Below are positions 15,619-64,000 of a stretch of DNA of 64,000 nucleotides, one piece after another (positions within the stretch are counted from its first letter, which is position 1; each line of letters begins with the position of its first letter). The notes beneath the pieces are model-generated. The model was not told where the DNA came from and made no database searches. It worked only from the letters and a program-made list of their open reading frames with translations. The stretch lies in assembly GCA_963736615.1 (NCBI GenBank), contig CAVTPP010000005.1, forward strand, positions 138,473 to 202,472, in the 5' to 3' direction. The stretch is from an uncultured Chloroflexia bacterium. Lineage in GTDB: Bacteria > Chloroflexota > Anaerolineae > Promineifilales > Promineifilaceae. The position numbers were made by a program, and so were the translations under genes.

Positions 15619-17025
15619 CTAATTCTTCATTGAAATTTTGAACACAAAGGCATGTTCTCCAATCGGCTGAGCCGGTAAAGAGATTGTTAGCCCATCTTCA
15701 CCTTGTGACCAGGAAAGAGCACTATCGTCACCGGCCAACAACGTGATATTTTTGATGTTTTCAGCTATAAGTGGGGAATTTGTACTAAGTGATTGAATCG
15801 TAATCTGCTCTCCTGGCCAACCAAGGGGAATGGCGTAAAGCGCATTCCCCTTTTGGGTGAACCGAATATCCTTGGCAGTGAAAGGCTGATCGTCTTGTTC
15901 TTTGAGATTGCCTTCCCCAATCTTTGCCGGACCCTCGCCGTAAACGTGCCATGGTCGCGTGTCATAAATCGCTTCGCCATTGATTTGAAGCCATTGGCCC
16001 AAACCAAGCAACAAGCTGGCTGCTTCCTCGGGGATAGTACCGTCCGGGCGGGGACCTACGTTAAGTAACAGATTGCCGTTTTTGCTTACAATGTCTACTA
16101 AGTCATGGATGATGACGGCAGTTGGTTTGAACTCGTCATTTTCTATGTAGCTCCAAGATTTGTAGCTGACGGATGTATCAGTTTGCCAATAGTCTTCACG
16201 AAGATGATCAAGTTTCCCCCGCTCGACGTCAAGGACAGCGACCCCGTCTGGGAATTTGTCTTTATATTGAAGGACAACCTCTCTGCCCCATTTCAAGGCC
16301 TCATTGTAATAATAAGCGGCAACTCGAGGACGATAGGGCATAAATTCATCTTCGTGCCAGCCGAAATCAAACCAAAGCACATCAGGCTCGAATTTGTTTA
16401 TCAGTTCTTTGGTTCTGGTAAACCAATCCTTTAGCCATTCTTGGGGTGCAGGTTCATCTTCAAGGTGTGGGGGACTGTATAGCTGAATGTTTTCTGGGTC
16501 AGTGGTATCAAAATCGTCAGCATATGTGTAGAAGCGCCAGTTAAAGGCTCGATGGGAGGACACGCCAAATTTTAAACCAGCGGCCCTCGTAGTCCTTGCC
16601 AACTCGGTAACAATGTCTCGTTTCGGCCCCATCTTTGCCGCATTCCAGGGTGTATAGTCAGTATCATACATGGGAAAACCATCATGATGTTCCGCTACAG
16701 GCACAATGTAGCGTGCCCCAGCGGCTTTGAACAAATCCACCCAGGCGAGCGGGTCCCATTTCTCGCCCTTAAACATTGGAATAAAGTCTTTATAGCCGAA
16801 GGCCCCGGGATGACCATAAGTCTTAAGGTGATGCTGGAAGTAGTTGATTCCTCGTTCGGAGATTTCGTCACGGTACATGAATCGAGGGTACCATTCGTTA
16901 TCAAAAGCCGGGACTGAATACACACCCCAATGGATGAAAATACCTAACTTATCATCCTTAAACCAGTCAGGTACCTGGTATTTTTTTAATGAATCCCAAT
17001 TGGGTTGGTACATTGGTATCCCCAC
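15619..17025 (-). CDS. GH29 alpha-L-fucosidase
   Basis: YQPNWDSLKKYQVPDWFKDDKLGIFIHWGVYSVPAF is a classic GH29 N-terminus. 468 aa. GTG start at 17025 or ATG at 17013. Confidence 0.9.
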   Translation of the reverse strand: MGIPMYQPNWDSLKKYQVPDWFKDDKLGIFIHWGVYSVPAFDNEWYPRFMYRDEISERGINYFQHHLKTYGHPGAFGYKDFIPMFKGEKWDPLAWVDLFKAAGARYIVPVAEHHDGFPMYDTDYTPWNAAKMGPKRDIVTELARTTRAAGLKFGVSSHRAFNWRFYTYADDFDTTDPENIQLYSPPHLEDEPAPQEWLKDWFTRTKELINKFEPDVLWFDFGWHEDEFMPYRPRVAAYYYNEALKWGREVVLQYKDKFPDGVAVLDVERGKLDHLREDYWQTDTSVSYKSWSYIENDEFKPTAVIIHDLVDIVSKNGNLLLNVGPRPDGTIPEEAASLLLGLGQWLQINGEAIYDTRPWHVYGEGPAKIGEGNLKEQDDQPFTAKDIRFTQKGNALYAIPLGWPGEQITIQSLSTNSPLIAENIKNITLLAGDDSALSWSQGEDGLTISLPAQPIGEHAFVFKISMKN

Positions 17026-58462: not shown

Positions 58463-59410
58463 CTAACGAGAAAACAGCTCTCGTTCTACTTGATCCTCTA
58501 CAGGATCAAGGATCCTTAATTCACAATCTAAGGCTACAACAGCGAGCGATCGCTCATAACTTTGAAGTTCTGTAAGGGCCGCCTTGGCTTCAGCTGATAG
58601 CGTATCGAGTGGAAGACCGCCAGTGATGGTATCAAGCCGATTCCTTAAGTCAGGCTCGATTTCTTTTTCATGATTGTAATCGAAACCGGCCCCTCGAATG
58701 CAATCGCCGAATTCGGCAATGGCGGCAATCATACGTGGATCTTGCTCGATTAAGGCATCCTTCGGATTTAGGTATGAGACATTGAGTTGTTCAGGCGTAA
58801 AAATCTGCTCAATGGCCGCTCGGGTACAACCACCGGTTCGCATAAGGTCTTCGATTTCAATTGCAACTGCGAAAGTTGTATTGGTATTTTCGCCGAGGAG
58901 TGTGTGATTGTAGGCTACCTGATCTGCTGGAGAAAGGTTTTTGAAGATTTGTACGTTTTGCTTACCCAAACCAATTTGGGCGGGGGTGGTTGTGTCGGCA
59001 AGCTGTGGGGGTAAGCCTGTATATAAGGTAGAAATACCGTAGCCATGCCGCTCAAAGTATTGTTTTTCACTAAGCCCGGGTAAGGATTTGTCAGAAGTCA
59101 TCCCTCTTCGTACGGTGTTGTAATCTGCTGCGATGTATTCAAATCCGGCTTCGTTCATACAGGTTGCGATGTGTCCCTCAACAGCCTCGATACTGGTGAC
59201 GAGCCCTTCTTTGGTTAAACCAAACTCTTCTGTGCCAGGAGCATCAACATTCGCTGACGATGACGCGATGGACTGCTGGTTTGTTGCGCTGCTGCAAGCT
59301 ATCAGAAGCAATGTGGTGAATAATAATAAAGGCAAAAACTTGGTAAGCCGGTTATTAAGTTTACTGTTTGCAAATTTAATCGGCCGTAAAATAGGGCGAT
59401 CTGGTTTCAT
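58463..59410 (-). CDS. lipoprotein of unknown function
   Basis: Lipobox LLLIAC|SS. ATG at 59410 follows a GAGGAGG RBS; the listed ORF starts 18 nt further upstream. Co-oriented with and 14 nt upstream of the adaptor gene. Confidence 0.6.
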   Translation of the reverse strand: MKPDRPILRPIKFANSKLNNRLTKFLPLLLFTTLLLIACSSATNQQSIASSSANVDAPGTEEFGLTKEGLVTSIEAVEGHIATCMNEAGFEYIAADYNTVRRGMTSDKSLPGLSEKQYFERHGYGISTLYTGLPPQLADTTTPAQIGLGKQNVQIFKNLSPADQVAYNHTLLGENTNTTFAVAIEIEDLMRTGGCTRAAIEQIFTPEQLNVSYLNPKDALIEQDPRMIAAIAEFGDCIRGAGFDYNHEKEIEPDLRNRLDTITGGLPLDTLSAEAKAALTELQSYERSLAVVALDCELRILDPVEDQVERELFSR

Positions 59411-59756
59411 ATTCGACCTCCTCAACATTTATCCTGCTGACAAAGCGCAAGAGCGTAGAGAAACAATAATGAGAATTAACAGGCTTCATTACTTAGCGCC
59501 TTATTTTTATCCATTCCTAGAATAGCCCAAGAGCACAGATCGCCAAAAATAATTAACCTTAAGCAATAATATATCCTAGATCATTAAGAAATCGATGAAA
59601 GTATATTGGTCAGGATGAAGAGATTGCAGTGTAGGTGTTGGCAAACAAATATGCCGATTTCTTAGGAGGTAGGAGTGGCTCGTATACATTCTTGTAGCCA
59701 ATAATTTCAGCAACTTTTTCCTCCAATAGAATCTCCGCCGTGTATGATCGAACTGT

Positions 59757-59784
59757 CCCCGGAAAGTTTTCGGGGTTGATTTTT
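59757..59784 (+). terminator. orphan terminator-like hairpin with T-run
   Basis: CCCCGGA-AAGTT-TTCGGGG stem-loop followed by TTGATTTTT. No convincing ORF upstream. Confidence 0.4.
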
Positions 59785-60268
59785 GATCTTAAATGTTTTA
59801 GACTAATGTATAATTGTTCGGGTCAATCATTTTGGGTAGGAGCGTAGCTTATTGGGCGGGTTAATTTTTAAAGAGAAGTGATTGCCCACATATTATTAAA
59901 AACCGTTGTTTTAATGGTTATGGCGATAGAATTATCTATTGTCATTTTGTTTGAAGTTCGCGTATCAGGTCTTTCTGCACATACTTCTGACCAGGGTCAT
60001 AGATTGATCCTGAAGAATATGCCATGGTGCAGGTGTATTGGTTTCGGTGATGTCGTGATATCGTTTGATTGCGAGAAGATCCCGGCCCCGAACCCGGCTA
60101 AATGCTGAAAATACCAACTCATAATACATCACAGCCCCCATCCAGAAATTTATGAGATTATAGCAAGCGGTTATCGCTATGTAACTGATCCGACTGCTAG
60201 TGCTAGATGACAGGCGTATCGCTATGTGTCGAAGGCGGCGGAGCATGTCAGGATCAGCAAACAGAAAC

Positions 60269-60463
60269 GAGGCAAGAGTGAGTTAAAGTAAATACGGATA
60301 GAACACAAAGGCTTCATTGCAGTGGGATCAGCACTAGCTTAAAGCTTACCTAAGGCACTGACTCCGGCAGTATATAGGTAAAAAAACTAAATCCTCTATC
60401 TTTTGCTGGCCAACCTTAGAACAACAGTGGTTGTTAGCTTTTACTTTAACTCACTCTTTCCTC
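60269..60463. repeat. long inverted repeat (19 bp perfect, 23 bp with one mismatch) enclosing 147 nt
   Basis: AAGAGTGAGTTAAAGTAAA at 60274-60292 pairs with TTTACTTTAACTCACTCTT at 60440-60458. After one C/T mismatch the helix extends by GAGG/CCTC (60269-60272 / 60460-60463). Confidence 0.9.
60322..60407 (+). ncRNA. conserved non-coding block, copy A (candidate structured RNA)
   Basis: GTGGGATCAGCAC-25 nt-GACTCCGGCA...TAGG..AAAACTA...ATCTTTTGCT. Homologous to 60782-60885. Lies inside the long inverted repeat. Confidence 0.3.
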
Positions 60464-60506
60464 TTTTCTAAGTACAAATAAATGGTGCCTATATATATAA
60501 ATACAG

Positions 60507-60535
60507 CCTAGCACGGAATGCCGTTAGGTTTTGTT
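60507..60535 (+). terminator. weak terminator-like hairpin
   Basis: CCTAGCACGG-AATG-CCGTTAGG (bulged stem) followed by TTTTGTT. Confidence 0.3.
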
Positions 60536-60781
60536 AAACTACTGAAGTAAAGGATGGGGTGCTAACGTCAAATATGTACATCAGACTAAAAACCTTTAGT
60601 GTTGGAAATAATAAAAGAGGGATGAGTTAGCTTCGTAGCCGACCGGATAGTTTGCAGGTAGTAGGGCGAAGATTGAACAGAATCTCGAAGGTTTGCCTGT
60701 TAATGGTTAATTCGCCGCACAATTTGGATGATTAATAAAGGGGAAATGTGTAATAAGCGTTTTCTTGGACACCCTGGACGG

Positions 60782-60885
60782 GTGGGATCAGCACAAGTCC
60801 AGGGCTAACCCACAATGCCGACTCCGGCAACTTTGTAGGCATAAAACTATGGTATACCATGGATTCTAAGCCGTCAATCTTTGCT
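60782..60885 (+). ncRNA. conserved non-coding block, copy B (candidate cis-regulatory leader of the downstream giant gene)
   Basis: Same conserved strings and the same 38-nt and 23-nt internal spacings as copy A. Runs directly into the terminator at 60870-60911. Confidence 0.35.
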
Positions 60886-60911
60886 AATTTCGATTGATGG
60901 CTTTTCCTTTT
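60870..60911 (+). terminator. intrinsic terminator / attenuator 105 nt upstream of the ATG at 61016
   Basis: 10-bp stem GCCGTCAATC / GATTGATGGC (one G-U pair), 12-nt loop, then TTTTCCTTTT. Confidence 0.6.
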
Positions 60912-61015
60912 ATCCTCAACTACAAGAATTTTTGTAGCTCCTGACTATGCACAACCCACGGTGGCAAGGTTTATGAATTCAGCATCAGATAATTTGAAGG
61001 CATTGGAGGTGACAA

Positions 61016-64000
61016 ATGCTGAATAAATACCAAGGTAGAGAAAAGATTATATATATATTGTTTACATTTTTCATAATTCTCTTCTCACTTGAGAAGGGAT
61101 CTCCCCTGGTGGCACAGAGAGGGGATGCCACTGCAAGGTATGTAGGAGTTTTTGATCCCGATGATGTTGGAGAACTAAACCCTTTTGGCCTGGCATTTCT
61201 GCCGGCGACTGATGAATTCCTTGTTCTTGAGCCGGCAGAATTAACTGTTGTGCAATCCTTACGGTCCAACTTCATCAAGATTGGGTTGGCTGGGAGACGG
61301 CATGGTACAGCAGGTGTTGCCAATATCACTGATCCAATCAATATCGCATTTGATAACAAGGGTCAGCGTTTGCTATATCTAAGTTCAGCGAGAGGGAATT
61401 TATATGAGGTTCGTGTTGACGACCAAGGGTCTCTAATCCAGGAAGCACAAAAACACCACATCAGCAGTAATCTAGGGGTTCTTGATCCACAAGGTATGGC
61501 AGTCGATCCAAGCAGCGGTGACTTATTTGTCCTTGATGGTGATGGGCCCAGACTGATTCACATCAGGCCGAATAAGTCAGGCGAATTTTCGACGGCCGTG
61601 GTTACCGAAATAGCATTGGAGAAGCCGGCCTTTGCCGGTTTGCGGGGCATAGCGTTTGATCCGACTAGTGGCCATTTACACATCATGAATGCGGAGCAAA
61701 AAAGGCTTTATGAGGTGACGACAAATGGTCGGGTTGTGGCTGTCCGTGACTTGAGCAGTATGGGATTAGGAACGACACATGGCATGGTCTTTGCGCCCAG
61801 TGGTGACAGGACCGATGATCCCGCCCAGATGAGCCTCTACCTTGCCAACAATAGGCAAGTTCATTTGGGTGATGTCGCTATAAGTGAAGGCGCAGGTAGG
61901 GAGATGGCGGGACAGATTGTTGAGGTGTCCTTCACCCCTGCAAGGTCGCATGCTCAAGCCAGCTTCGTATCCGGGTTGGTGCAGACCATAGATGGTTCAC
62001 AATGGTCACCACCCAGCCCTGATACGGCAGGTATTACATACATGGCGTCATCCGGTACGCTGCTGATTACAGATTCTGAGGTCAACGAATTGCCGCTCTA
62101 TGAGGGACGAAATGTTTTCGAGTCTACCCTTTCAGGCAGCCTAAATGCTACATTTGACACGACATCCTTCACAGATGAGCCAACCGGTATCTCCTTAAAC
62201 ACGGCCGATGGACATCTGTTCATATCCGACGATACAGGTACTCGCAGGATTTTCGAACTGGCCCCTGGATCTGATGGCTTTTATTTCTCTTCCGATGACA
62301 TCATCACATCATTTACAACCCTTGATTTTGGTAGTAACGATCCGGAAGGCATAGCTAATGCCGATGGTGACGATATTCTTTATATTGTAGATGGGGTAAA
62401 TGCGGAAGTTTACCAGGTTACACCCGGTGTAAATGGTGTCTTCGATGGTGTGTCGCCGGCCGGAGATGATCAAGTGACAAGTTTCGACACTGCGAGCTTA
62501 GGTTTGACAGACCCTGAAGGTGTTGTCTTTAATCCTGACAGCGGGAATCTGTACGTAGTTGGGGAGCCTGTAGACACGCTTTTTGAACTAACGACAGCGG
62601 GAGGACTGGTTCAGACAATAGATATCTCAGCCGCGAATGCTTATAAGCCGGCAGGTCTAGCCCTTGCCCCGAGCAGCTATAACCCAAGCACTGATAGCAT
62701 CTACCTGGTTGATCGTGGGGTTGATAATAACAGCGATCCCAATGAAAATGATGGCAAAATATATGAACTAACCCTGCCGGCCAGTGGAGCTGTTCCCCCT
62801 GCCGCTGTCGGAGATGATGCCAACACGAACGAGGATACTGCTGTGACCATTGATGTTGCCGGGAATGACAGCGACCCGAATGACAATTTGGATCCCAATT
62901 CGGCCAACAGCAGTTGTGCCAACGGTTCTACCGGCTGTGTGGGCGCGGCCAACGGCTTGGTGAGTGATAATGGTGATGGCACGATTACATATACGCCTGA
63001 TTCAGGGTTTAGTGGCGATGATAGCTTTGTCTATGAGATTTGCGACACCGATCCGTTGTGCAGCACGGCCGTAGTAAACATCACCGTTAGTGTAAACGCT
63101 CCCCCTGTGGCTGTCGGTGACAGCAGTAGCACAGCTGAGGGCATTCTGGTGGTCCTCGATGTGGCTGGAAATGACAGCGACCCGAATAACAACCTGGATC
63201 TAACTTCGGTCAACACAAACTGTGGGGTCTGTTCTGACCCATCCGATGGGACATTGGTTAATAATGCCGACGGGACCCTTGATTACACACCTGACCCAGG
63301 CTTTACTGGGGACGACAATTTTGTTTATGAGATCTGTGATACGATTGGCGCTTGCGATACAGCAACCGTGACCATCACCGTTTTTGAGAAGCCATTTTTC
63401 GATACAATCTATCTAAGTTTTGCCGGCAGTGGATCAGTCGGCGGCGTCGCTTTTACTGACAATGATATCGTGGCCTTTGACAGCGGGACCGAGACATGGT
63501 CAATGTACTTCGATGGCTCAGATGTGGGTCTGGATGCAAGCGCAAGCTTTCAGGAAATCGATGCCCTACATGTCAATGTGGATGGTTCTGTCTTACTCAG
63601 CCTTGGTTTAGATAGCGCCTTGCCTGGTATTGGCGCTGTTGACGATTCCGATATTGTAAAGTTCATTCCAACCTCTACAGGCGATAATACAGCCGGTACT
63701 TTCGAATGGTATTTCGACGGCTCGGATGTTGAATTGACGACTGACGGTGAGGATATTGACGCATTGGGGATTGTTCAAAACGGAATTTTAATCATCAGTA
63801 GTAGAAGTATCCTAAATGTCAGCGGCGTTTCGACCGCTGATGAAGATATGGTCTTTTTTATCCCCACACAGTTGGGTGAAAACACCAGTGGATCATGGGC
63901 GTTATATTTTGATGGTTCTGACGTAGCCTTAAACGCTCCCGATACAGAAGATGTCAATGGGACATGGATTAATGACAATGGTGATATTTACTTGACTGTG
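61016..64000 (+). CDS. giant secreted/cell-surface protein, 5' partial (at least 995 aa): signal anchor, NHL/SdiA-regulated-like beta-propeller repeats, two cadherin-like/Big_9-like domains, YFDGSDV repeats
   Basis: My own translation from ATG 61016 (GGAGGT RBS 5 nt upstream) runs to the window end without a stop. N-terminal hydrophobic IIYILFTFFIILFSL. Repeats DPQGMAVDP..G.L.V.D. Cadherin-like segments AVGDDANTNEDTAVTIDVAGNDSDPN and DGTITYTPDSGFSGDDSFVYEICD occur twice. Three W.(M/Y)YFDGSDV(G/E/A)L modules. Confidence 0.85.
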   Translation, partial: MLNKYQGREKIIYILFTFFIILFSLEKGSPLVAQRGDATARYVGVFDPDDVGELNPFGLAFLPATDEFLVLEPAELTVVQSLRSNFIKIGLAGRRHGTAGVANITDPINIAFDNKGQRLLYLSSARGNLYEVRVDDQGSLIQEAQKHHISSNLGVLDPQGMAVDPSSGDLFVLDGDGPRLIHIRPNKSGEFSTAVVTEIALEKPAFAGLRGIAFDPTSGHLHIMNAEQKRLYEVTTNGRVVAVRDLSSMGLGTTHGMVFAPSGDRTDDPAQMSLYLANNRQVHLGDVAISEGAGREMAGQIVEVSFTPARSHAQASFVSGLVQTIDGSQWSPPSPDTAGITYMASSGTLLITDSEVNELPLYEGRNVFESTLSGSLNATFDTTSFTDEPTGISLNTADGHLFISDDTGTRRIFELAPGSDGFYFSSDDIITSFTTLDFGSNDPEGIANADGDDILYIVDGVNAEVYQVTPGVNGVFDGVSPAGDDQVTSFDTASLGLTDPEGVVFNPDSGNLYVVGEPVDTLFELTTAGGLVQTIDISAANAYKPAGLALAPSSYNPSTDSIYLVDRGVDNNSDPNENDGKIYELTLPASGAVPPAAVGDDANTNEDTAVTIDVAGNDSDPNDNLDPNSANSSCANGSTGCVGAANGLVSDNGDGTITYTPDSGFSGDDSFVYEICDTDPLCSTAVVNITVSVNAPPVAVGDSSSTAEGILVVLDVAGNDSDPNNNLDLTSVNTNCGVCSDPSDGTLVNNADGTLDYTPDPGFTGDDNFVYEICDTIGACDTATVTITVFEKPFFDTIYLSFAGSGSVGGVAFTDNDIVAFDSGTETWSMYFDGSDVGLDASASFQEIDALHVNVDGSVLLSLGLDSALPGIGAVDDSDIVKFIPTSTGDNTAGTFEWYFDGSDVELTTDGEDIDALGIVQNGILIISSRSILNVSGVSTADEDMVFFIPTQLGENTSGSWALYFDGSDVALNAPDTEDVNGTWINDNGDIYLTV

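Follow-up and report, generated by a model that had tools for sequence, protein, structure and literature searches.

Between positions 59429 and 61015 of a 64,000-nucleotide (nt) stretch of DNA from an uncultured Chloroflexia bacterium (assembly GCA_963736615.1, contig CAVTPP010000005.1, forward strand, 138,473 to 202,472; hereafter the window) a gap of 1.6 kb separates two sets of genes. On one side lies an operon on the minus strand which encodes a protein of 321 amino acids (aa), a PG_binding protein and an ABC transporter of the MacB type. On the other side a giant surface-protein gene (adhesin gene) starts on the plus strand at 61016, with an ATG behind GGAGG, and continues beyond the end of the window at 64000. 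In the gap, a first-pass annotation had noticed two short blocks, each present twice and at a fixed spacing. They are best explained as the invariant segments of a structured RNA module which occurs here in two paralogous copies (A and B), is undescribed and restricted to the lineage, and is transcribed from the plus strand. The host belongs to the Anaerolineae (Chloroflexota), which are abundant, mostly uncultured and described as filamentous. To our knowledge, almost nothing is known about RNA-based regulation in this class.

Two repeated blocks and their homologues

Block 1 (GTGGGATCAGCAC) lies at 60322-60334 and at 60782-60794 and block 2 (GACTCCGGCA) at 60360-60369 and 60820-60829, with a start-to-start distance of 38 nt and a gap of 25 nt in both copies. 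A TAGG follows at +15 in one copy and at +16 in the other, AAAACTA at +23 in both, and strings of the type ATCTTT(T)GCT further on (ATCTTTTGCT at 60398 and ATCTTTGCT at 60877). All of these strings and spacings, which go back to the first-pass annotation, were found in place when the sequence was read again. In the 64 kb there are exactly two occurrences of the pattern GGGATCAGCAC-N20-30-GACTCCGGCA, 100 dinucleotide shuffles produced it 0 times, and no further exact copy of block 1 or block 2 exists in the window. The 48-nt cores of copies A and B are 71 % identical. By direct count the blocks agree at 23 of 23 positions, whereas the intervening 25 nt agree at merely 11; substitutions are thus clearly unevenly distributed. 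Block 1 contains GGAUCA (60785-60790) and block 2 contains CUCC (60822-60825), at the same positions in copy A. The hexamer GGAUCA also immediately precedes the anti-Shine-Dalgarno sequence in the 3′ terminus of 16S rRNA (GGAUCACCUCC), perhaps by coincidence.

A scan of the whole window with Rfam 15 models (cmscan, gathering thresholds) gave 0 matches. In E-value mode, the region 59400-61100 and the corresponding regions of the two homologous loci introduced below (L046 800-1600 and L042 15480-16800) yielded chance-level matches only, which cover at most the small hairpin P3 and the terminator of unit B and never the blocks. Best among them was Chlorobi-RRM (RF01697) at 60844-60913, with 21.3 bits against a gathering threshold of 45 and E = 0.19. 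This family resembles the region in that a hairpin is followed by a terminator-like hairpin. However, the match is confined to P3 and the terminator, the conserved blocks lie outside, and the region is no member of the family. The earlier impression that no known RNA class is involved has therefore held up at all three loci. A tRNA-like reading was rejected as well, for ARAGORN found no tRNA in the window.

Exact-pattern scans with GGGATCAGCAC-N20-30-GACTCCGGCA covered 185,579 species genomes (one per species) and the JGI metagenomes, and a relaxed form of the pattern was run against IMG/VR. They returned 15, 10 and 14 loci, respectively. These matches were rejected as homologues, as all look like chance matches and none of them shares the flanks. 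All but one are situated in GC-rich DNA that appears to be coding. The exception is L003 6969-7017 from a Candidatus Woesearchaeota metagenome-assembled genome (MAG), where the two-block pattern apparently arises by chance opposite to what looks like an archaeal tRNA-like sequence, that is on its reverse strand, with the T-arm signature GGATTCGAACC nearby. The plasmids of PLSDB gave no match by blastn.

True homologues were reached via the proteins encoded nearby. A relative with 78 % identity to the 321-aa protein lies on a MAG contig of 377 kb (L042), the minus strand of which carries the same tandem pair, with A′ near 16149 and B′ near 15803. The BTAD protein of L042 in turn led to a contig of 3.9 kb (L046). 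Three islands are conserved in the gap of the window, namely U (60038-60180), unit A (60263-60469) and unit B (60707-60911). Blastn between window and L042 aligns B (60707-60911) at 73 %, A (60258-60501) at 71 % and U (60038-60180) at 69 % identity, and the spacers between U, A and B cannot be aligned. A fourth block joins window 59400-59602 to the region upstream of the 316-aa gene of L042. In L046, a BTAD gene is preceded by U and B, and A is missing. The BTAD protein of L046 agrees at 294 of 295 positions with a cluster member on a contig of 221,237 nt. An exact copy of the 321-aa protein of the window lies on a contig of equal length, and L046 is thus most likely a second module locus in the window's own species.

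In total, five copies (three B and two A) were found at three loci of two species among the 546 kb searched. They are 70–77 % identical, with unalignable spacers. Hence homologous copies do exist elsewhere, and a high-copy dispersed repeat is not at hand, since the few copies always belong to the same module. AAAACTA, which had been listed among the conserved strings, is confined to the window, where both copies have it; the B units of L042 and L046 lack it. Regular expression, nhmmer, sensitive blastn and a covariance model detected no motif within 10 kb of relatives of the 321-aa gene (L043-L045, 69–76 % identity) or of a BTAD homologue (L048, 56 % identity), nor upstream of the adhesin homologues L016 and L017. 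The distribution is probably under-sampled, because the large collections were searched by the exact pattern only, which both L042 copies fail.

Unit B is oriented like the following start codon at 3/3 loci, at a distance of 105 nt in the window, 184 nt in L042 and 140 nt in L046. The gene behind it is a BTAD/SARP-like regulator in L042 and L046, and the giant adhesin in the window only. The tie to a giant surface-protein gene which the first-pass annotation had drawn is therefore not a general one. In the window the order is the 321-aa operon (minus strand), U, A, B and the adhesin gene; in L042 it is a glycosyltransferase gene on the opposite strand, U, A, B and the BTAD regulator. Since the genes on both sides of U-A-B change between loci, the module is a unit of its own. 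The BTAD genes of this group adjoin giant surface-protein genes of the PKD or cadherin type, which points to cell-surface control as the common theme.

The blocks had been judged non-coding before, and this view is confirmed by tblastx, the matches of which contain stops in all frames, only an open reading frame (ORF) of 6 codons being conserved. Between the U islands, matches occur in several frames and every one of them includes stop codons. Furthermore, the cores differ by an internal insertion or deletion of 1 nt. A protein-coding reading was rejected on account of these stops and indels and for want of a conserved open frame beyond the 6 codons. The more specific claim that no ORF spans either block needs correction, for two mechanical ORFs cross copy B, one of 34 aa on the plus strand (60765-60869, TTG start) and one of 42 aa on the minus strand (60732-60860); neither of them, however, is conserved at the other loci.

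Predicted folds of units A and B

Unit B is headed by 65 conserved nt (60707-60771), in which the blastn homology to L042 and L046 begins and which form a candidate promoter region. Promoter scans of this part were convincing for nothing on the plus strand, and no consistent −35/−10 pair of the sigma-70 consensus was seen there. The B units of the window, L042 and L046 share the same four-hairpin minimum free energy (MFE) structure, with an ensemble frequency of 27–43 % and z-scores from −5.0 to −7.0; the B region of the window folds at z −5.3. Hairpin H1 (60772-60804), part of the MFE structure of all three units, consists of an 8-bp stem (CCCUGGAC/GUCCAGGG) enclosing GG-GUG-GGAUCAG-CAC-AA with GGAUCAG as the loop. 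Block 1 (60782-60794) is its apical part, and in L046 a C-G pair of the stem is replaced by U-A (CUCUGGAC/GUCCAGAG), a compensatory change. Hairpin H2 (60809-60839) has the base CC(C)ACAA/UUGU(A)GG and the tip UGCCG-ACUC-CGGCA with block 2 (60820-60829). Its cells are paired to 81–87 %, and the register of the tip varies among the copies. A small hairpin, P3 (60847-60862, CUAUGG-UAUA-CCAUGG), is predicted in the three B units with 4 of 6 pairs conserved. A helix P1 closing around H1 and H2 was sought and rejected, as just short A/U-rich complementarities at inconsistent positions turned up.

The unit ends in an intrinsic terminator (60870-60911), the stem of which (60870-60901) reads GCCGUCAAUC...GAUUGAUGGC and is followed by the U-run UUUUCCUUUU; in the DNA of the window these parts are GCCGTCAATC...GATTGATGGC and TTTTCCTTTT. 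The hairpin with T-run noticed earlier behind copy B is real and kept at 3/3 loci. Its stem comprises 10–14 bp, with 14 pairs in L042 and L046 according to a terminator scan, and the three changes among the loci are one-sided and of the wobble type. Directly before it lies a candidate upstream ORF (uORF) of 6 codons (60849-60869, MVYHGF*), the sole ORF whose start and stop columns are kept in the three B units. Its counterparts are MIYDGS* in L042 and MLCHGF* in L046, with M1 and G5 invariant. The stop codon, which changes from TAA to TGA in L046, abuts the terminator stem. The only candidate for a ribosome-binding site is an AGG at 60837-60839, 9–10 nt before the AUG and paired in the base of H2.

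Unit A is wrapped in an inverted repeat which had escaped the first-pass annotation. Positions 60263-60292 and 60440-60469 are 93 % complementary over 30 bp and enclose copy A as the two arms of a clamp stem, the 3′ arm being followed by the U-rich tail CUCUUUUCU. L042 retains each of the 25 stem pairs of the RNAalifold consensus; one pair shows a compensatory change from G-C to U-A and two have changed from G-C to G-U. Inside the clamp, block 1 (GUGGGAUCAGCAC, 60322-60334) is identical in A′ of L042. It is followed by the small hairpin Ha (60336-60346), AGCU-UAA-AGCU in the window and AACU-CGG-AGUU in A′. This G-C to A-U compensatory change agrees well with the AGC..GCU helix, and thus with the constraint at the RNA level, suggested in the first place. 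In the MFE structure of unit A hairpin H2 (60347-60380) has the base UACCUA/UAGGUA and block 2 (GACUCCGGCA, 60360-60369) at its apex; a CCYA/UAGG base and a CYG-ACUC-CGG tip are present in 5/5 copies. A further consensus hairpin with L042, GCUGGC...GUUAGC (60405-60438), shows one compensatory change from A-U to G-C and four from wobble to Watson-Crick pairs, and by its position it is the counterpart of the terminator hairpin of B. Since this hairpin and the U-rich 3′ arm match the position of the B terminator, A is a full paralogue, the U-tract of which was recruited into a clamp stem of 25–30 bp. The mutually exclusive helices CAACC/GGTTG and AACAAC/GTTGTT, proposed earlier for the region behind copy A, are not kept in L042, where the basal GC-GGC/GCC-GC stem alone persists.

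For the fold of the whole of unit A the z-score is −6.4 with the window copy and −5.5 with that of L042. All 49 pairs of the consensus of both are kept, 4 of them with changes on both sides, 7 with changes on one side and 0 broken. The four two-sided changes are found in the clamp stem, in Ha, in a 3-bp helix and in hairpin 60405-60438 (one each). Double changes are 0 at every slide of the partners, and 24 of 500 shuffles score as high as the alignment itself. In the three-way alignment of the B units, 91 % of the cells pair compared with 28–39 % when the partners are slid. Together, the few compensatory changes and the many wobble-preserving ones support an RNA structure on the plus strand, with a sample that is too small for statistics. 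The direction of transcription is further indicated by U-runs after hairpins, and by G.U pairs (in the terminator, two in the L042 clamp stem and four in the window hairpin 60405-60438), all of which would be mismatches on the minus strand.

The same evidence bears on two explanations at the level of DNA. According to the first, the stretch from U to B is a low-copy non-autonomous mobile element or the relic of a repeat, with hairpins that serve as recombination or end structures in DNA or single-stranded DNA. The window's species appears to have two module loci (the window and the L046 type), the flanking genes vary between loci, and unit A has its 30-bp inverted repeat, all of which would suit such an element. 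Against this, only one locus is present in 64 kb and five copies in 546 kb, the 1.6-kb gap holds no ORF for a transposase, TnpB or integrase, and no target-site duplication was noticed. Moreover, the inverted repeat carries a compensatory change which is not expected of independent terminal repeats, the U-runs of the terminator and the G.U pairs are strand-specific features of RNA, and the spacers are unconserved, whereas recent copies would be near-identical. We regard a mobile origin as very improbable. A miniature inverted-repeat transposable element or another dispersed repeat, including palindrome-associated elements of the IS200/IS605 type, was rejected because of the few copies (one locus in the 64-kb window, five copies in the 546 kb searched), the 70–77 % identity, the unalignable interiors and the compensatory change in the inverted repeat.

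The second DNA-level explanation takes the blocks as control sites in double-stranded DNA (operators bound by a regulator like the BTAD protein, a GATC methylation switch for phase variation of the adhesin, or an antisense promoter) and the RNA folds as incidental. GATC does lie within block 1 in 5/5 copies, and the locus context of surface protein and regulator would fit. Moreover, a promoter-like TTGACG-17-TANCAT is kept on the opposite strand of the three B units. Yet neither block is palindromic or part of a direct repeat at helical spacing, and DNA binding does not explain the compensatory stem changes or the conserved terminator. In addition, the antisense −35 and −10 hexamers overlap the terminator arm and the start of P3 and the uORF, so that their conservation may have another cause. 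This explanation, too, is very improbable. In detail, the antisense motif reads TTGACG-17-TA(C/G/T)CAT and is located at 60877-60849 of the window (minus strand), 1416-1388 of L046 and 15710-15738 of L042, that is at 3/3 loci.

Island U (60038-60180) accompanies the module at 3/3 loci at variable distance and is a non-coding companion element. Its core, AACTCATAA-(27 nt, C-rich)-TTATGAG-ATTATAGCAAG, forms a 7-bp hairpin CTCATAA...TTATGAG with the C-rich 27 nt as loop. The island is not notably structured (z +0.7). It is 69 % identical over 145 nt to L042 16679-16536, and its 68-nt core is 82 % identical to L046 876-943. On the minus strand CTTGCTATAAT resembles an extended −10 site in the window and L042, not in L046. 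A leftward extended −10 element (TGCTATAAT), perfect in the window and L042 and lost in L046, was rejected, and so was a role of U as promoter of the 321-aa operon, for the operon's own 200 nt upstream are conserved separately with L042 9813-10011.

Further features of the gap were observed outside the three islands. Two terminator-like hairpins with T-runs occur on the plus strand at 59757-59785 (CCCCGGAAAGTTTTCGGGG followed by TTGATTTTTG) and at 59920-59955 (11 bp, A/T-rich). They are preceded by no ORF on this strand, may be signs of further small transcripts and lie in a stretch without conservation in L042. The spacer between A and B (60470-60706) has no alignable similarity to that of L042, which is about 100 nt shorter. 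Within it, 60602-60630 is purine-rich (AAAAGAGGGATGAGTTAG) like the 5′ arm of the clamp and 72 % complementary to 60450-60478, which makes it an alternative partner for the 3′ arm; in L042 the equivalent position is occupied by AAAGGGAAAC repeats. The region 59400-59602 is 66 % identical to L042 10011-9813 and comprises 200 nt upstream of the 321-aa gene and its L042 orthologue; judged by this conservation, it is probably the promoter or 5′ untranslated region of the operon of the 321-aa, PG_binding and MacB-type genes.

As regards the neighbouring genes, the product of the giant adhesin gene contains SdiA-regulated, NHL, Cadherin-like (Cadherin_4/5) and Big_9 domains. Its homologues come mostly from MAGs of Anaerolineae/Chloroflexota, and the named homologues of the neighbouring proteins mostly from MAGs of Anaerolineae or other Chloroflexota. 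Each BTAD gene is followed by an ORF of 66–71 aa without Pfam match (L046 2658-2867, L047 1167-1367 and L048 12738-12953). Giant genes of the PKD/cadherin type lie near the BTAD genes of L046 and L048 and a glycosyltransferase gene near that of L047, which looks like a recurring neighbourhood. Far from the gap, the segment 4000-12000 of the window has a GC content of 0.54–0.62 compared with about 0.46–0.52 elsewhere in the window and may be foreign or compositionally distinct.

A terminator-ended leader as candidate function

Unit B is tentatively read as a 5′ leader or attenuator which ends in a terminator and in which a trans-acting factor reads two invariant loops; we put somewhat less than even trust in this reading. 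It builds on a structured domain that is co-oriented upstream of a gene at 3/3 loci and on the intrinsic terminator with its stem of 10–14 bp and U-run. Promoter scans of the stretch between terminator and gene revealed no sigma-70-like site at any of the three loci, which also counts for a leader. In each copy, block 1 (GGAUCAG with GUG/CAC flanks) tops the first predicted hairpin and block 2 (ACUCC/GG) the second, on a CCYA/UAGG base. Unit B, with its roughly 65 conserved nt upstream, would be a self-contained transcription unit and attenuate transcription of the next gene, be it the BTAD/SARP-like regulator or the adhesin. The two loops could serve as the recognition surface of the factor, more likely a protein than a metabolite, which would decide whether RNA polymerase stops at the terminator. 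One route might lead via the uORF, whose weak AGG site is buried in the base of H2 and whose stop codon abuts the terminator stem: a ribosome on the uORF would prevent the terminator from folding. The start and stop columns kept in 3/3 B units and a position in which a ribosome would overlap the terminator are in keeping with this route, and the uORF is taken as a lead with weak standing. Unit A shares these loops but lacks a uORF and is not followed by a gene; it might act as a tandem first checkpoint or as a decoy for the same factor.

A more specific version combines both units into a decoy-plus-leader pair which is read by one RNA-binding antiterminator or small ligand. B would gate SARP-type or adhesin genes by way of the hexapeptide uORF, and A would titrate the factor. 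This version is distinctly unlikely.

A number of results weigh against the leader reading. To begin with, the covariation is thin. It comes from five copies at three loci of two species, and the pairing is mostly carried by invariant sequence. In the three B units there is a single double change, a value reached by 271 of 500 shuffles; as covariation does not exceed the shuffles, the structure is plausible, not statistically proven. The strand signal is mixed in H2, for the C.A and A.C mismatches at its base in the B units would turn into wobble pairs if the minus strand were transcribed. Furthermore, the core allows several mutually exclusive helices across the five copies; UGGG/CCYA, RGUG/YRCY and GGAUCAG/CUGA-C-UCC each pair at least 20 of 25 cells. 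UGGG/CCYA, the GUGGG/CCYA helix of the first-pass annotation, pairs 20/20 cells with one one-sided change. It is thus possible, but shows no two-sided change and competes with the far more stable two-hairpin MFE structure of the B units. RGUG/YRCY also pairs 20/20 cells when its four core pairs are counted and 22/25 when the flanking pair is included; it shows one double change from A-U to G-C. The local hairpin Ha pairs 19/20 cells with covariation, and CCYA/UAGG competes as well. With several helices in competition, the fold of the core is not settled.

An alternative partner for the loop GGAUCAG of block 1 is the complementary string CUGA-C-UCC, which overlaps block 2; the two match over 7 bp with one bulge and pair in 33/35 cells. 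This pairing is the choice of RNAalifold in unit A, and it might form as a loop-loop contact. It could also explain the fixed spacing of the blocks. As the cause of that spacing, however, it was set aside, since 3.7 % of the composition-preserving shuffles reach 33/35 and in B it is 12–20 kcal/mol less stable than the two-hairpin fold.

The regulatory part of the leader reading has its own difficulties. The first-pass annotation had seen the aptamer-plus-terminator layout of riboswitches. Of this layout, the terminator is kept at three loci and a riboswitch is unproven, because no conserved antiterminator pairing between H1/H2 and the terminator was found in the MFE structures, in constrained folds or in the three aligned B units. 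The only alternative pairing on offer is a weak AUGG/CCGU helix of 4–6 bp. The peptide of the uORF is poorly conserved and its ribosome-binding site is just AGG. Its ATGNTA start is equally well explained by the P3 stem or by the conserved antisense promoter-like TTGACG-17-TANCAT. Promoter scans identified no promoter for A or B. Finally, the strong terminator and the unconserved stretch between terminator and start codon would also be expected of a trans-acting small RNA (sRNA).

Indeed, A and B may be stand-alone trans-acting sRNAs, arranged as tandem paralogues of about 145 nt (B) and about 210 nt with paired ends (A), their loops being seeds or protein sites. ACUCC contains CUCC, which resembles an anti-Shine-Dalgarno sequence, and their position beside BTAD and adhesin genes would be without significance or a sign of co-regulation. 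The strong conserved terminator with its long U-run speaks for such a pair, as do the roughly 65 nt conserved upstream of B like a private promoter, the unconserved stretch behind the terminator, the missing antiterminator pairing, the integrity of the module while genes on both sides change, and invariant single-stranded loops on variable stems, which are typical of sRNA paralogue families. On the other hand, B lies near a start codon and is co-oriented with it at 3/3 loci, the complementarity of CUCC to GGAG is generic, and A has no conserved upstream region, its homology beginning 5 nt before its stem. A pair of sRNAs is accordingly a possibility that we consider rather unlikely.

The conserved terminator-ended module would provide a concrete handle on the control of surface adhesion in Anaerolineae. 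At present it amounts to a well-documented candidate RNA family with a narrow distribution, comparable to many others that comparative genomics has brought up. If one shared factor reads both invariant loops, it would represent a new leader or decoy system.

Comparison with known systems

ANTAR sites consist of two hairpins with hexanucleotide loops, the second of which overlaps the 5′ half of a terminator, and the small RNA EutX sponges EutV through a repeated two-hairpin signature (PMC5821096). The module shares with the sites of EutV, NasR and AmiR and with the decoys EutX/Rli55 two adjacent conserved-loop hairpins before a terminator. As in EutX/Rli55, the signature recurs in a second nearby RNA without the terminator-gene arrangement. 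In contrast, the loops of the module comprise 7 nt (GGAUCAG) and 4 nt (ACUC or UCCG), and H2 ends at 60839, 30 nt before the start of the terminator at 60870. No ANTAR gene was seen in the flanks examined. An ANTAR dual-hairpin site was rejected, as neither the hexanucleotide loops nor a second hairpin overlapping the terminator are present. If the decoy-plus-leader pair were true, it would follow a logic like that of EutX/EutV, in an RNA family and a phylum that are both new to it.

The attC sites of integrons are imperfect palindromes of 60–140 nt with RYYYAAC at the 5′ and GTTRRRY at the 3′ end. This identity was rejected for unit A, the clamp arms of which (GAGTTAAAG at the 5′ and CTTTAACTC at the 3′ side) have the opposite order and enclose 147 nt of conserved sequence.

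OmrA/OmrB and PrrF1/PrrF2 are encoded by tandem paralogous sRNA genes. Like these, A and B are adjacent co-oriented paralogues with invariant short segments, diverged scaffolds and a terminal hairpin with U-rich tail each. They differ in that no match of sequence or structure exists, the phylum is another one and A is wrapped in a long clamp stem.

In leaders of the erm, msr and vmlR type, transcription is attenuated by a ribosome on a short uORF. Unit B resembles them by its very short ORF of 6 codons right before the terminator, with start and stop positions kept. However, its peptide is unconserved, the ribosome-binding site is weak, and the genes behind it encode a regulator or an adhesin instead of a resistance function.

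Altogether, the module works most like terminator-type leaders, that is riboswitches, protein- or ribosome-dependent attenuators and their tandem arrangements. With them it has in common a structured domain before a co-oriented gene, an intrinsic terminator and a related tandem copy upstream. It departs from them in that it belongs to no Rfam class and no antiterminator pairing was found, in that the conserved nucleotides are placed in two apical loops and not in a junction or pocket, and in that unit A has neither a free terminator nor a gene behind it. The module, which fits no Rfam model, is thus best regarded as a new family of narrow distribution which belongs to an already known kind of element.

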